A stretch of DNA of 64,000 nucleotides, from NCBI GenBank assembly GCA_951406725.2, contig OX597831.1:80910001-80974000 (forward strand), given 5' to 3'. This stretch comes from Octopus vulgaris. Taxonomy: Eukaryota. The position numbers and the translations under genes were made by a program. Below the pieces are notes generated by a model. That model was given only the letters and a program-made list of their open reading frames with translations. It made no database searches and was not told the DNA's origin. Below are positions 22,655 through 50,635 of this stretch, one piece after another. Numbering within the stretch: position 1 is the first letter of the stretch; each line of letters opens with the position of its first letter.

Positions 22655-23230
22655 TGTCACCTGATGCAATTTGATAAATGTATTCTGTACGAAGCTAAGA
22701 CTAATCTAAAAACAAGCAAACGATGCCTCTACGTGACAGCTTGGTGTGCAAGAAATAACTATCAAATCGCGCTCAGTATACTCTTTTCCAGCTTTAGAAA
22801 ACAAAAGCACAGAATATATGATATAGTGGACGATGGTCAAGGCTGGAACGGCATTGATCAGAGGTCTATTCAGTCAAAAGTGACTTGGAGGTAAATATGC
22901 ACGCGATCAAGCGTGCATATTTATTCCAACACTTGCAAATTTATATTTGGATATTGCACTGATGAGAACAAAAGGTAATTATGTTTTACTTTAAGTTCGA
23001 AACGCGTCTGTAATTAACCGCTGTCGAATCGATTCATCATTTTACTTTTCTCGGAGTTTTTATGGTAGTTGAAAAGAGATTAGCGTCTATTTCTAATTCA
23101 GTACGTGGCGAGGCAATTAGCCGCCCCCTCATTATAATTATGCATATAATTATAGAATATTTTGTATAATTTATCTAAAATGTCTTTTTTTAACATACTG
23201 ACTACTTCGTAAAATTATTATTATTAATAA
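22655..23230 (+). mobile_element. Degraded Penelope-like element 3' end (GIY-YIG-like remnant plus pLTR)
   Basis: Peptide DKCILYEAKT...LYV...SSFRKQKH resembles a PLE GIY-YIG endonuclease and is followed by a hammerhead motif. Confidence 0.55.
22953..23014 (+). ncRNA. Type I hammerhead ribozyme
   Basis: Stem I ATTGCA/TGTAAT, CTGATGA, stem II GAAC..GTTC, GAAAC GC GTC (palindromic ACGCGT stem III, GUC site). Confidence 0.85.
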
Positions 23231-23384
23231 TCTTACCATATATATATATGTATATATATATATATATATATATATATATATATATATATATATATATATA
23301 TATATATATATAACTTACTTGGAAAAGGATGCGTGGCGTTCTGATTTCTCACTGTCCTGTTCTTGTTACCACTTTCAGCACAGA

Positions 23385-24925
23385 GCCCAAGTTTCGGGTG
23401 TATCTTAAAGGTGATACCAACATCATTTGGACAATGCTGATGGAATATTTTCCCCATCATGCCGATGATGTAGCGCCCAAGGCAACGTTGGAAAAAATAA
23501 AGCTTGAGCTTTTCTAGTCGACCCCAATAGTCAAGGCCTGTCATGCCATCTATCGTTTTTGTAATTGATCTTTGAGGTGCTTCAATTTTCATGATACTTT
23601 GTTTCATGTGAGGAGACCACGGTGGACAACAGTATTCAAGGTGGGGTCGGGCAAAAGTGTAGAAGAGAAGGATAATGGTGTGGATATCTCTCGACTGGAA
23701 AGTTCTGAGAATCCAGGAAAACATTCTGCGGGCCATGTCAACATTGCTGCTTATATGAGTGGACCAGCTTATGTTGTTGTCCACAATTACTCCCGAGTCT
23801 CTGATGTTGTTGGATGCCATAAAAGTTTCACCTGAAGGAAGGGAGTATGGGAGTTTCAGGGTATCCTCTTTTCCGAAGTGGATTAACTCAAATTTGTCCT
23901 CGTTCAGCAGAATATTATTCTTTCCCGCCCATTGGATGACAGTCAGTAGATCCGACTGAAGACATGTCCGGTCACCCACTTCATTGATGACCTTCTGGAT
24001 CTTGAAATCATCTGCAAAGATTATGTTGCTGTGCTCGGTGATAGCAGTAACGTCATTGATGTAGATAATGAAAAGAAGTGGGGCCAACACAGTGCCTTGT
24101 GGAACACTGCACTGACTTTGGCTGGGCTTGATTTTACTCCTTCGACTACAACGTGTTGGGTTCTGCCTGTCAGGAACCACGCCATCCATTGTAGTAACTT
24201 TCCATGATACCAACGTTGGATAGTTTTTCAAGAGGATCTTATGATCCACCCTGTTAAAGGCCTTGTTGAAATCAAGGTAGATGACATCAGTATTCGAGCC
24301 CTCTCCCAAAGCTCTCAAAATGTCATCAAGGTGATGCAGGAGCTCCTTCCATTACGGAACCCATGTTGGTTGGGGTTCAGCAGTCTGTTGCTTTCAAGAA
24401 AGTGGGCTATCCCTGATCTCACCACTCTCTCTAATACCTTGATGATATGAGAGGTGAGCGAGATCAGCCGGTAGTTCACTGTAAAAAACTAGTTTCCCAT
24501 TTTGAAAACTGGGGCAACAGATTGGGACAGAAAGTTCTCGGGAATAAAACCAGCATTCAGTTAGTTCCTCCACAGATTAACAAAAGGAGATGAAAGTTGG
24601 TGTCGGCGCACCTTCAGGACACAAGCGAGGAACCTATCAAGGCCTACCGATTTGTGTTTGATTTCGTTAATTGCCGCTAAGACATCTGGGGCGCCAAATG
24701 TTATGTCCGATCTAGTGTGTTGAGGATTAACATCACTGGTAACAGTCCAGATCGACCACATCAGGATTGCCAAAAACAGAGCAGCACTGTTTCTGCAGCA
24801 TCTCACTCATGGTTTTCACATTATCTTGGAGATTGCCATTTTCATGAATTAGAGGGCCAACAGCTGAGACAGAAAACTTGTGTTTGTTCGCAAAAAAAAA
24901 AGAACACACTAGGGTTGAGTTTTTA
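23385..24925 (-). mobile_element. CR1/L2-like LINE reverse transcriptase fragment (degenerate)
   Basis: NYRLISLTS, DVIYLDFNKAFNRVDH, VPQGTVLAPLLFIIYIND, FADD, RPHLEYC motifs. Confidence 0.92.
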
Positions 24926-25099
24926 CATACATACATACAAACATACATACATACATACATACATACATACATACATACATACATACATACATACATACAT
25001 ACATACACACACACATACATACATACATACATACATACATACATACATACGTACATACATACCTACATATATATATATATATATGTAGGTATATATGTA

Positions 25100-25292
25100 T
25101 GATAAAAATGGTAAGACAACAAAAGAAAGAAAGAGACCTCGATATTATGCAAATAGAGGAATTTATCTGTAAATGTAATATGTGGCAATTATTCGGTAGC
25201 CATGATAAAACTCCGGCGTGGATTTCCACCTCGGCATCCGAAACTCGGAGTTTTATCATGGCTACCGAATAATTGTCATATTATTTACAGAT
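25100..25292. mobile_element. Fold-back Penelope-like pLTR fragment with truncated hammerhead
   Basis: Inverted arms around ~25215-25245. Same family as 42640-42804. Confidence 0.7.
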
Positions 25293-27269
25293 ATACAGAT
25301 ATACAGATATATATATATATATATATATATATACATATATATACATACATATATATGTATATATATATATATATATATATATATATATATATATATATAT
25401 ATATATATACATGTATGTATATATATGCATTATATACATGTATGAATATATATGTATATGGATATATATATATAATATATATGTAAGTATGCATATGTGA
25501 ATATATATGTACATACTTTTATGTGTGTGTATATGTGTGTACACACACATATTTACACATACACACTTCAGACTAGACACACTTCCAGCATAATTTCATC
25601 AAGCAGTGAAGTGTTTTAATAAACAACCACGCACGCGCATGCGCACTCGTACACACAGACATGCACACGTTCACGTATTTTCCTGCATTTTTCCTCTCTG
25701 TTCGTATATGTGTGTGTTAGTATATGTATGTGTGTTTTTGCCTATGTATATTGTAACTCGCACGCGCGCGTGTGTGTGTGTGTGTGTGTGCGTGTTTATG
25801 GCAGTATGTGAAACAGATGCCATCGAGCCGAGCCAATGTGTGGCAGCGGCCATTTTGAACAGCTGCTTGCAGTGTTTACCTTTCAGCCGGATTCTGTGTG
25901 AGACGCGAGAAGATCCGCAGCGAGCTTACAGCCAGCCTTGCTATCAAAACACGGCCATTTCCTTCTGTGCGACTGTTTCTTCAGCCATTTAAACATACAA
26001 CCCAGCCCACCTTATACGACAATCGGGGGTCGGGTTTAAAAAAATAAGGGTCGTGGCATGGCGAGATGCGCTGGCAGAAGCAGCGGCGGCGGCGGCGGCG
26101 GTGGCCGGGGTGAGATGAGGAGATTATCGGAGGGAACAATGATAAAATGTGACGCCATTATCGTGTATTACTTTTGTTGTGGTGTTAGCAGGGGTAAGGT
26201 TAGGGGTGTGTGGTCATAGGGGTGGGCGGATGGGTAAAAGTTGGGACGATGGCTGCTGGGATTGGGGGGTGGGGGTGCAGTTGCTCGCGTTTTACATTTT
26301 GTAATTACTTTTCATTCAAGCACACAGCGAATCTTTTCATACGCAAACACACACACACACACACACACACACACACACCATATATATATATATATATATA
26401 TGTACACATACATATGTGCATATATATGTGTGTGTGTTTGTATATATATATATATATATATATATATATACATACAAACTCACAAACACATATATATATA
26501 TACATACAGACACACACACACACGTATATATTTAGAGAGTGAGTGAGTGAGAAAGAGAGAGAGAGAAAGAGGGAGAGAGAGAGTGGATACATACACAGAT
26601 GGACATGAATATCACACACACACACACACCACAGGGATGGGTGCGCGATTCGCACACACGTACAGAAACATCTCGCATCACATACGTATGTATAGAATAC
26701 AGACATACATATGTATGCATGTGTGTGTGCGTGTGCATTTATACACAAATGATATAACGATAGACAGACATATAGATAAACAACCAGGGAGGCAACAGAG
26801 ACAGAGACGGAGCCATCAAGATAGACATAAATACTTCTCATGAACTCAGGAAGCGGTGCTCAACAGCATAAATCACAATAATTGATTTGCTTGACTGAAG
26901 CCGAGTAAGACGGCTCCTTACAGTTTCCTTTGCTGTAAAGATTTTGGCGTTCTTAAGGCATCAAACCAGAATGTGGCGGATTAACCAACTACGGTTATTA
27001 TAATCACAGATGATGTTATCACACAGTTATTGCTTTAAAAATCAGTGGGTTTCAAATCCAGTAAAGATAGTGTTATATTCTCCGCTTAATGTTATAAACT
27101 ACTTATCGTTATTTGAAAGGTTCCGTCGCAAAGTCATAGCAATAAACGGCTTTCGCTGAATGTATATCTAAACATATATACACACGCTCACACATTCACA
27201 CACGCATGCACATACATATGCACACAATAGAAAAGAATTCATGGTTATATTTATGAATATTTAAGACCG

Positions 27270-49469: not shown

Positions 49470-49530
49470 TTTTCGTGATGTAATAGAATTATCAATAAGT
49501 AATAAACGCGTCTGAAACAGCTGTAGAGAA
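49470..49530 (+). ncRNA. Decayed hammerhead-like motif
   Basis: TTTTC GTGATGT ... GAAAC AGCT GTA GAGAA. The core is mutated but the palindromic stem III is retained. Confidence 0.3.
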
Positions 49531-49986
49531 CCTTTAACGCATTTGTGTTCTTTTATATATATATATATATATATATATATATATATATATATATATATAT
49601 ATATGTGTGTGTGTGTGTGTGTGTGTGTGTGTGTGTGCGTGTATACATGTGCTTACATGCATACGCATACATATAAACATGCAAAATATACACTCGTACA
49701 CGCAGTTTTGCAATCAAGCAAGCCTGTGTATATACAGACATCATACACACACATATAACTCACACACATCCCTTTTCTAAAGCAACAGATAATATTAAAA
49801 GCAATTAATATTTTACTCTGGCGCAGGTATTGAGTTCTTAATCGGATAATGGTTAATTTGATTTCAGTATATCAAGATACGTGTTAAAAACGTACGCATA
49901 CTCACATACATATATATAGACAAAAGTTCTTTATTTTCCTTCTTTGCTGTATTGTACATCGATCCATCCTTAAACAGCCCCACATT

Positions 49987-50212
49987 AACCAGTATAACTA
50001 GTAAAACTATCGTAACTAGTATAATTAGTACAATAATAAACTATAACTATTGTCATAAGAATAGCTAACAGACGTATAACCATTTGTGGAACTAGTATAA
50101 CCAGGATAATTAACTATAACTAGTATAACTAGTGTTATTAAGTATAACAAGTACAGCAAACTAGTTAGTATAACCAGAATAAATTATAAAATTAAAATAA
50201 CTAGTATAATCA
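49987..50212. repeat. Degenerate 10-bp minisatellite (AACTAGTATA)
   Basis: Recurrent AACTAGTATA/AACCAGTATA units. Confidence 0.7.
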
Positions 50213-50590
50213 GCATATTTAATATCATTATATCATTATTTCCAGTCTAAAGAAATTGTTAGTCCCTGAATTAACTTTTCTGCATTTCTAGAGAAGAGGA
50301 AGTTGTCAGTTATCCCCCTTGAGCGGATTTTTAGAGTGAGTGAGTGATTGGACAACAGTGAGAGAGATGGGAAGAGAGAAAGAAGAATCGATCCATCTTC
50401 TTGACTAGTACTTTGCCTTTCACACACACACACACGCATGCACATGGAGGCGCGCACGCACGTGCGGTGTTTTCAAATTTTGTCAAACGAATAAGAAAGA
50501 AGACAACAAATATTGTTGAGTATATCGTAGGTTTTAACTGATTACTTTCGCAAAATTTGAAATTCATCCACCACGATTATCACGTGAAGA

Positions 50591-50635
50591 TTCTCGCTTG
50601 ATGATCGTGATTGTATGAAACTCAAGCTGTGAGAA
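50591..50635 (+). ncRNA. Decayed hammerhead-like motif
   Basis: TTCTCGC TTGATGA ... GAAAC TCAA GCT GTGAGAA: 7-bp stem I, with mutated core and cleavage triplet. Confidence 0.35.

Follow-up and report, generated by a model that had tools for sequence, protein, structure and literature searches.

The question raised by this stretch of the Octopus vulgaris genome (64,000 nucleotides of contig OX597831.1, hereafter the window) is whether the hammerhead-like motifs scattered through it are genuine and, if they are, what kind of element carries them. By sequence, the best named match was to Octopus sinensis, a weak one (60% identity over 53%). The first-pass annotation named seven well-formed motifs, all of which are present with intact CUGANGA, GAAA, A15.1-U16.1, C15.2-G16.2 and NUH. 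Because two of the seven are arms of one inverted duplication, they count as six independent families.

22878..22934, no strand assigned: local palindrome of 57 nt, a short way upstream of the 22953 motif
22953..23014, plus strand: type I hammerhead, intact core, GUC triplet, G10.1-C11.1, 33-nt helix II region
28067..28129, minus strand: type I hammerhead, intact core, GUA triplet, 6-bp stem I, 30-nt helix II region
38670..38720, minus strand: type I hammerhead, GUA triplet, 6-bp stem I, weak 3-bp helix II on U.U
40928..41013, minus strand: hammerhead, GUA triplet, same sequence as 41802-41887, on the left arm of the duplication
41802..41887, plus strand: type I hammerhead (the 41800 motif), GUA triplet, 59-nt helix II region with U.U at its base
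42320..42373, plus strand: type I hammerhead, GUA triplet, 6-bp stem I, A.C at 10.1-11.1
42744..42804, minus strand: type I hammerhead, GUU triplet, 31-nt helix II region, extra C before GAAA

The hammerhead-type motifs in the window are confirmed as real. Among the 55,026 unmasked bases, 7 loci fitted a strict type I descriptor (stem I of at least 4 bp, helix II of at least 3 bp, helix III of at least 2 bp). Dinucleotide shuffles, the control that the first-pass annotation had proposed, averaged 0.017 loci over 300 runs and never gave more than 1. With stem I set to at least 6 bp there were 4 loci in the window and 0 in all 300 shuffles, and a one-mismatch descriptor found 7 loci against 0 in 200 shuffles. 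The strict set comprises six of the seven named motifs and a decayed one at 43172 (minus strand); 42744 is excluded at helix II owing to an A.C mismatch and an extra C in this copy, and its sister copy at 25213-25293 carries T at the mismatch site, restoring the helix II pair. The stems do differ in sequence and still pair, as had been proposed: cognate strands of stem I form 4-6 bp (with one G.U in 22953), and none of 30 non-cognate pairings reaches 4 Watson-Crick pairs, the maximum being 1. In metagenome contigs the pattern CTGANGA-N10-40-GAAACGATCGTA occurred at 120 loci from 13 of 64 parts, and only one of these loci forms both stems, as the 42320 match in the window does; this true hammerhead (L109, 549 nt) lies on a contig too short to show an ORF, and the 42744-family motif had 0 matches in these contigs. 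It could be argued that AT-rich, low-complexity DNA yields such matches by chance, as only ~13 core bases are fixed and Rfam gives no hammerhead match. The shuffles, the metagenome control and the cognate-only pairing of stem I nevertheless rule out a chance origin of the main motifs, the probability of which is negligible.

Helix II has 3-7 bp across the motifs and is mismatched at its base (10.1-11.1) in three of them, by U.U in 38670 and 41800 and by A.C in 42320, and stem I is extended, with an internal loop, in 42744 and 41800. Helix III is a perfect palindrome in 22953 (ACGCGT), in 41800 and 42320 (ACGATCGT in both) and in the decayed motifs at 2749 and 14954, an imperfect one in 28067 (ACGTTGACGT, with two G.U pairs) and 42744 (ACTCGGAGT, with a central mismatch), and not palindromic in 38670, where it has 4 bp and an 8-nt loop. 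Folding predicts that helix III forms within the monomer for 38670 and for 28067, whose monomer fold is at most 0.3 kcal/mol from the MFE, and by way of a dimer palindrome for the other intact motifs, 22953 being a predicted dimer-dependent case. Dimers are predicted to be 5-11 kcal/mol more stable than two monomers in all six families.

Alongside the intact motifs, the first-pass annotation had named decayed ones, some of which resemble hammerheads of Penelope-like elements (PLEs).

2749..2784, minus strand: classic PLE min-HHR relic, extra A after A9, G-C helix II, GAAACGTT
14954..14987, minus strand: classic PLE min-HHR relic, GAAACGTC, core change U4C
43172..43216, minus strand: decayed hammerhead, intact core, C.C at the helix II base, AUA triplet
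49470..49530, plus strand: possible relic, palindrome ACAGCTGT with GUA and a 5-bp stem I, two core changes
50591..50635, plus strand: possible relic, 7-bp stem I, C3U and U16.1C, poor helix II

Three of these held up: 43172 passes the strict descriptor, with CUGANGA, GAAA, A15.1-U16.1 and NUH intact and two G.U pairs in stem I, and 2749 and 14954 pass the one-mismatch descriptor. The latter two have the textbook PLE min-HHR form, each one core base off the published consensus (PMC4209133 Fig. S3), the change in 2749 being A6U. The remaining two, 49470, which has no helix II, and 50591, pass neither the strict nor the one-mismatch descriptor; they are no more than plausible relics, which in this window look no different from chance matches. 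The intact core in six families, two of them predicted to be monomer-competent, might be taken to mean that the host keeps these ribozymes to cut or terminate transcripts at the locus. Such a role is very unlikely, given that intactness is expected of young insertions, that decayed copies lie alongside, that orientation is mixed and that no host gene was identified around the motifs.

Hammerhead variants with a small palindromic helix III were reportedly described in PLE pseudo-LTRs by Lunse et al. 2017. That PLEs carry hammerheads, which the first-pass annotation took as background, is indeed already published (Cervera and De la Pena 2014; Craig et al. 2021). The former study (PMC4209133) found the min-HHR form in PLE pseudo-LTRs (pLTRs), extremely variable in sequence within a genome, for the most part present singly, and also found in pairs whose members lie on opposite strands at a distance of 100-700 bp; its Fig. 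S3 includes GUU triplets and PLE-linked variants from Aedes, D. willistoni and Marsupenaeus in which the palindromic helix III is longer. The motifs in the window share with pLTR hammerheads the type I topology, a palindromic helix III suited to dimers, GUU, GUA and GUC triplets, and the presence in one genome of many unrelated families, mostly as single dispersed copies, with opposite-strand pairs. Unlike the min-HHR form, the six intact motifs have a helix III region of 6-16 nt, no extra base after A9 and no ORF attached, and in five of the six families the helix II region measures 23-59 nt. In four of the six (30-59 nt) it exceeds all 56 examples of Fig. S3, the longest of which is ~23 nt by our own count. 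Palindromes at the 5' end of pLTRs, with which the one upstream of 22953 may be compared, are described in PMC3846280.

The long helix II is likely also the reason for the Rfam result, which was no hammerhead at the gathering score in positions 1-43000, none at E<=10 in positions 42240-42950, and none among the best 150 of 423 matches listed for the whole window, where microsatellite miRNA matches dominate. The published min-HHR descriptor (PMC4209133 Fig. S7), re-implemented as GAAANNUH without a helix III loop, helix II of 3-7 bp and loop 2 of at most 10 nt, gave 0 matches in the window, 2749 and 14954 being one core base short.

Most of the motifs had been placed in short AT-rich inserts bounded by (TA)n, and this description holds for the 3' side. 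All seven independent loci have a tract of at least (TA)6 no more than 230 nt beyond the cut site in the 3' direction, against a background of 16-42%, an enrichment with p ~1e-4 at a 26% background (20-52 kb) and p ~1e-3 when the local backgrounds, 28% and 42%, are used instead. At 22953 the tract is (TA)37, 230 nt downstream of the hammerhead, and 38670 begins 2 nt after (TA)16. On the 5' side only four of seven independent loci have such a tract within 250 nt of the motif (p 0.08), and five of seven lie in inter-TA segments of at most 600 nt (background 19%). The hammerhead-bearing segments have a GC content of 25-38%. No TA tract lies within 3 kb of 14954. Target-site duplications are unreadable inside (TA)n.

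The copies themselves are arranged in ways that bear on how they were inserted.

25101..25293, inverted arms: head-to-head pair of two 5'-truncated 42744-family copies
40603..42196, both strands: inverted duplication centred on (TA)38 at 41371-41446, its arms carrying the 40928 (minus) and 41802 (plus) hammerheads
42237..42286, minus strand: inverted 50-nt copy of the element's own 3' end (42429-42478), 100% identical, abutting (TA)22
42479..42556, plus strand: ~78-nt tail-like extension, at one of three ends of the 42320 family
50835..50936, plus strand: second copy of the 42320-family 3' end, 87% identical, joined directly to (TA)n, hammerhead lost

In the pair at 25101-25293 both 3' ends face outward into TA-rich repeats and a ~60-nt tail is confined to the left arm, so that an inverted pair with a one-sided tail is found in two of the six families (42320 and 42744); a similar inverted pair at 39675-39948 belongs to a third TA-bound family, in which no hammerhead was detected. 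An inverted truncated copy with a one-sided tail is the structure described for PLE insertions by Craig et al. 2021 (PMC8557442, section 6) and by Arkhipova et al. 2013 (PMC3846280), and a bias towards (TA)n or microsatellites is reported for Naiad and Neptune PLEs (PMC8557442). The copies in the window resemble insertions of such EN+ PLEs in the 3' end on (TA)n, the 5' truncation and, in the two families, the inverted truncated copy and its one-sided tail, and differ from them in tail length, ~60-78 nt here versus 30-40 nt published. The 40603-42196 palindrome, whose inner arms align with 475 matches, no substitution and 4 gap columns, was rejected as a simple PLE pair, as the duplicated region extends over host-like, non-element flanks.

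The six short repeats are thus best regarded, in our view with good though not full confidence, as 5'-truncated 3' ends (pLTRs) of several (TA)n-inserting PLE families. By analogy with the PLE literature, the GIY-YIG endonuclease of the parent element would nick (TA)n and reverse transcription would begin at the element's 3' end and halt early, and therefore only the hammerhead-bearing pLTR would remain, often as a head-to-head pair. In a tandem transcript of the parent element, two hammerheads are predicted to pair through the palindromic helix III and to cut after NUH, while 28067 and 38670 could fold as monomers too. The link to PLEs that the first-pass annotation drew gains from the inverted 5'-truncated pairs, the one-sided tail, the junction of the 3' end with (TA)n, the palindromes in helix III and the two min-HHR relics, and gains nothing from coding sequence, as no RT or GIY-YIG ORF is attached. 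It also fits the host, since 31 Penelope-like families in O. vulgaris were active recently. Because none of 65 ORFs (at least 45 aa) around the motifs matches a PLE RT or GIY-YIG domain, parentage rests on architecture and is supported, not proven; such an ORF is expected to be missing, because the copies are 5'-truncated. Searches beyond the window turned up no further copies. Just four of 36 segment pairs exceed z 2.5 (2780/14984, through the hammerhead itself, two AT-rich matches, and one 13-nt motif, common to 22953 and 28067 and picked after the fact), and the six families are therefore treated as unrelated to one another.

The idea of a population of self-cleaving RNAs gains no support from the copies themselves, which are solitary; three have the 10.1-11.1 mismatch, and the palindrome arms lie on opposite strands. 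Because of this opposite orientation, one transcript of both arms would form a hairpin rather than a ribozyme dimer, and the solitary copies in the window are probably mostly inert fossils. Among 20 matching sequencing runs (10 studies, four organisms) none contained half of the query words, and no RNA run was listed.

The absence of ORFs inside the 136-600-nt inserts, together with their low GC, would also suit non-autonomous, non-coding retrozyme-like elements, that is, elements derived from pLTRs that PLE enzymes would mobilise in trans, perhaps by way of circular RNA, and that are seen as dispersed monomers. This reading overlaps that of truncated PLE 3' ends, the difference being whether each family has a coding parent. 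The more canonical 5-6-bp stem I and real helix III of 28067 and 38670 fit it, as does the report that retrozymes are pLTR-derived and often monomeric (preprint 10.64898/2026.07.22.740005). Like animal non-LTR retrozymes (Cervera and de la Pena 2020, PMC7229834; Li, Clavereau and Pollet 2026 preprint), the inserts are short, non-coding and AT-rich with a type I hammerhead, and the U.U at the helix II base recurs in the axolotl retrozyme hammerhead HHR_Amex2. Unlike them, they form no tandem arrays in the window: the defining tandem unit of the retrozyme-like families initially proposed (~150-400 nt, each with a hammerhead) was not found there, and the segments show no terminal redundancy, the longest direct repeat being at most 10 nt in nine of nine segments. 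In addition, the 5' ends of copies in the window vary and none begins at the cleavage site, and inverted truncated pairs are a PLE pattern. A retrozyme-like origin is for these reasons unlikely.

If the parents are PLEs, the repeats could be the 3' ends of Naiads, with hammerheads overlooked owing to their long helix II. Octopus Naiads prefer (TA)n, Naiad_Ovul is marked 'HHR_half_core', and the published core search used a 7-17-nt spacer, which the helix II regions of five motifs here exceed. The published 3' ends of Naiad_Obim and Naiad_Ovul, compared by eye, resemble no element here, and their core-like motif does not occur in the window even at 3 mismatches. Cephalopod Naiads are moreover described as long inactive, and Naiads as being without canonical hammerheads (PMC8557442), whereas the families in the window have intact-looking ones. 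We regard this identity as highly improbable.

Both hammerhead-bearing PLEs and PLE insertion into (TA)n are already published, and what is added here is mostly a host and six families, which may themselves already be annotated in the Zenodo library of PMC13282606 or in the supplements of the bioRxiv preprint. In the literature on octopus and cephalopod PLE hammerheads, only the notes on Naiad (PMC8557442) and a giant squid count, of 235 Rfam hammerheads, were found. Long-helix forms escape both Rfam and the minimal descriptor, and hammerhead counts in such genomes are therefore underestimates. Extrapolated to 2.8 Gb, the density in the window (six intact families, or one intact motif in about 10 kb) would amount to more than 10^5 intact hammerheads, a denser population than in any animal count found in the literature (axolotl: 120,000). 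It is conceivable, though rather doubtful, that a large class of non-autonomous retroelements in this genome has escaped annotation, elements that target TA and bear hammerheads in which both helix II and the palindromic helix III are too long for Rfam and the published descriptors, some of them monomer-active and cutting intronic or intergenic transcripts. Predicted monomer-type and dimer-type variants lie side by side here, and offer material for testing what hammerheads do in PLE replication.

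The hammerhead motifs of the window are real. All seven that the first-pass annotation called well formed (22953+, 28067-, 38670-, 40928-, 41802+, 42320+ and 42744-, named by window start and strand) have an intact core, and a strict type I descriptor (stem I of at least 4 bp, helix II of at least 3 bp, helix III of at least 2 bp), run over 55,026 unmasked bases, found 7 loci, whereas 300 dinucleotide shuffles gave 0.017 on average and never more than 1, so that shuffled sequence, proposed as a check on the claim, does not match the observed count. These loci are six of the seven plus 43172-, listed as decayed; the one missed, 42744-, has a flaw in helix II that is repaired in the sister copy. 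The stems were also said to differ in sequence while still pairing, and stem I is indeed family-specific, none of 30 non-cognate strand pairings reaching 4 bp. Of 120 metagenome loci that fit the core pattern, one formed both stems. That one, on a 549-nt contig (L109, 29% GC), is a real-looking PLE-type hammerhead at 200-260, with helix III ACGATCGT as in the window motif.

Because 40928- and 41802+ are the two arms of one inverted duplication, the intact families number six, and pairwise comparison within the window revealed no convincing homology among them. A 13-nt motif picked post hoc, TTCAGTAYGTGGC, lies 3' of two different hammerheads (23097-23109, +; 27914-27926, -). The motifs listed as decayed separate into grades: 2749- and 14954- have the classic PLE minimal-hammerhead form apart from a single core change in each, 43172- has lost helix quality, and 49470+ and 50591+, in which two core bases are altered and helix II is not clear, are indistinguishable from chance. 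A one-mismatch descriptor, which 2749- and 14954- pass, found 7 loci in the window and 0 in 200 shuffles.

The description of the inserts as bounded by (TA)n holds best downstream. A tract of at least six TA units lies 49-230 nt 3' of the predicted cut at all seven independent loci, against a background of 16% (whole window), 26% (20-52 kb) or 28-42% (local), giving p of ~1e-3 to 1e-4. Both sides are bounded in 5/7, which sit in inter-TA segments of at most 600 nt, and a tract of at least six units lies within 250 nt upstream at only 4/7 (p 0.08). This ties (TA)n to the 3' end, where target-primed insertion would place it. Two families have an informative anatomy:

42320+ insert, in order: (TA)22; inverted copy, 100% identical, of the insert's own 3'-end 50 nt at 42429-42478; hammerhead; 3' end; ~78-nt extension; (TTA)n(TA)n
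50835-50936: second copy of the 42320-family 3' end, abutting (TA)n directly
25101-25293: head-to-head pair of the 42744 family, each copy 5'-truncated with its 3' end facing out, ~60 terminal bases missing from one copy

Endonuclease-bearing PLEs are described as having 5' truncation, an adjoining inverted truncated copy and a tail on one end only (PMC8557442, Craig et al. 2021; PMC3846280, Arkhipova et al. 2013), and the same papers ascribe a (TA)n or microsatellite bias to Naiad and Neptune PLEs. The 42320 and 42744 families share all of these traits, but tails here exceed the published 30-40 nt. The hammerheads are most likely carried by truncated PLE ends, which would have inserted into TA microsatellites. 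Counting against a firm assignment are these overlong tails, the lack of an inverted pair in four of six families, and the lack of an RT or GIY-YIG match in 65 ORFs of at least 45 aa around the motifs, in a search that obtained RVT_1 for 3 of 7 control ORFs.

Less probably, the hammerheads are carried by non-autonomous pLTR derivatives. The elements had been called PLE- or retrozyme-like; PLE insertion architecture is present in two families. Tandem units and terminal redundancy are absent from every element segment in the window, and no element boundary coincides with a cleavage site; these observations count against classic retrozymes at this locus. The (TA)n preference of Octopus Naiads, one of which carries a 'half core' (PMC8557442), raised the question of a Naiad origin, but it found no support: the Naiad 3' ends, compared by eye and with one motif search, do not match the window elements. 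In that paper's supplement, the Naiad_Obim and Naiad_Ovul 3' ends have GAAAC and then, ~25 nt on, CTGATGA, a permuted order with pairing-like flanks that is possibly an unrecognised ribozyme variant; a motif search found it nowhere in the window. A further TA-bound family (39675-39948, a head-to-head truncated pair; 21350-21560; 48560-48900), in which no hammerhead was detected, is probably another PLE-type end.

The window is microsatellite-rich throughout its animal DNA and also contains clustered tRNA genes and LINE fragments:

3947-14113, mixed orientation: seven tRNA genes, four tRNA-Phe(GAA), one low-scoring, and three tRNA-Asn(GTT)
4512-6423: second large inverted duplication, arms 96-97% identical, a tRNA-Phe per arm
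9054-9512 and 54535-59666: non-LTR retroelement remains (RT, zf-RVT, PD..D-type C-terminus) with long (TAA)n flanks
19129-19789: 148-nt inverted repeats, 89% identical, of a transposase fragment, presumably mariner-like
23233-24351 (-) and 43854-44456 (+): broken LINE reverse-transcriptase fragments (Pfam RVT_1)

The non-LTR remains are putative Dong/R4-type elements. Active Dong-R4 is reported in O. vulgaris (PMC13282606). The LINE fragments adjoin hammerhead inserts and are unrelated to them; one RT fragment of the window has its best named match in Octopus sinensis (60% identity).

In the palindrome at 41800 the inner arms have 475 nt matched, 0 substitutions and 4 gap columns. Symmetry extends across non-element flanks as far as 40603 and 42196, with a middle section of greater divergence (16 substitutions). 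The structure resembles a fold-back duplication at (TA)38 more than it does a simple PLE pair, and may also be an assembly artefact. The inner end of its arm (41312-41370 / 41447-41502) resembles the TA-abutting end 40065-40096 (within 40065-40137; 87% over 32 nt), and two families may be combined in this arm. The duplication at 4512-6423 has a ~370-nt extra segment in its left arm and a self-palindromic GT/TA-rich centre; this locus and 40603-42196 together suggest that fold-back duplication recurs at microsatellites.

In folding predictions, dimerisation through helix III gains 5-11 kcal/mol over two separate monomers in all six families, the open-core dimer lying at most 0.6 kcal/mol from the dimer optimum in five and 4.8 above it in 42744. 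To adopt the active fold as a monomer would cost 28067 and 38670 only 0.3 kcal/mol, and the other families 3.4-7.1. These predictions fit the published model in which hammerheads of tandem pLTRs would pair as dimers and process transcripts of the PLE, their activity in vitro being low (PMC4209133, PMC6765202). Given that low activity, and a preprint by Li et al. 2026 (10.64898/2026.07.22.740005) in which just one of nine retrozyme dimers was seen to cleave, activity of the solitary window copies should not be assumed.

Unrelated families, dispersed single copies and palindromic helix III are likewise described in PMC4209133 (Cervera and De la Pena 2014), which reports many families per genome and opposite-strand pairs. 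The difference is one of size: CUGANGA-GAAA spacing is 23-59 nt in five of six intact motifs, against a longest value of ~23 nt among 56 examples by our own count from that paper's supplement. Helix III regions span 6-16 nt. The minimal-hammerhead descriptor published there detected none of the six, and Rfam gave no hammerhead match (gathering score, window 1-43000; E<=10, 42240-42950). Apart from the Naiad remarks in PMC8557442 and a tally of 235 Rfam hammerheads in giant squid, literature searches gave no publication on PLE hammerheads of octopus or other cephalopods, and the library of an O. vulgaris repeat survey reporting 31 recently active Penelope-like families (PMC13282606) may hold those of the window. 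What is new here is further families of a known hammerhead/PLE arrangement, with a modest structural twist.
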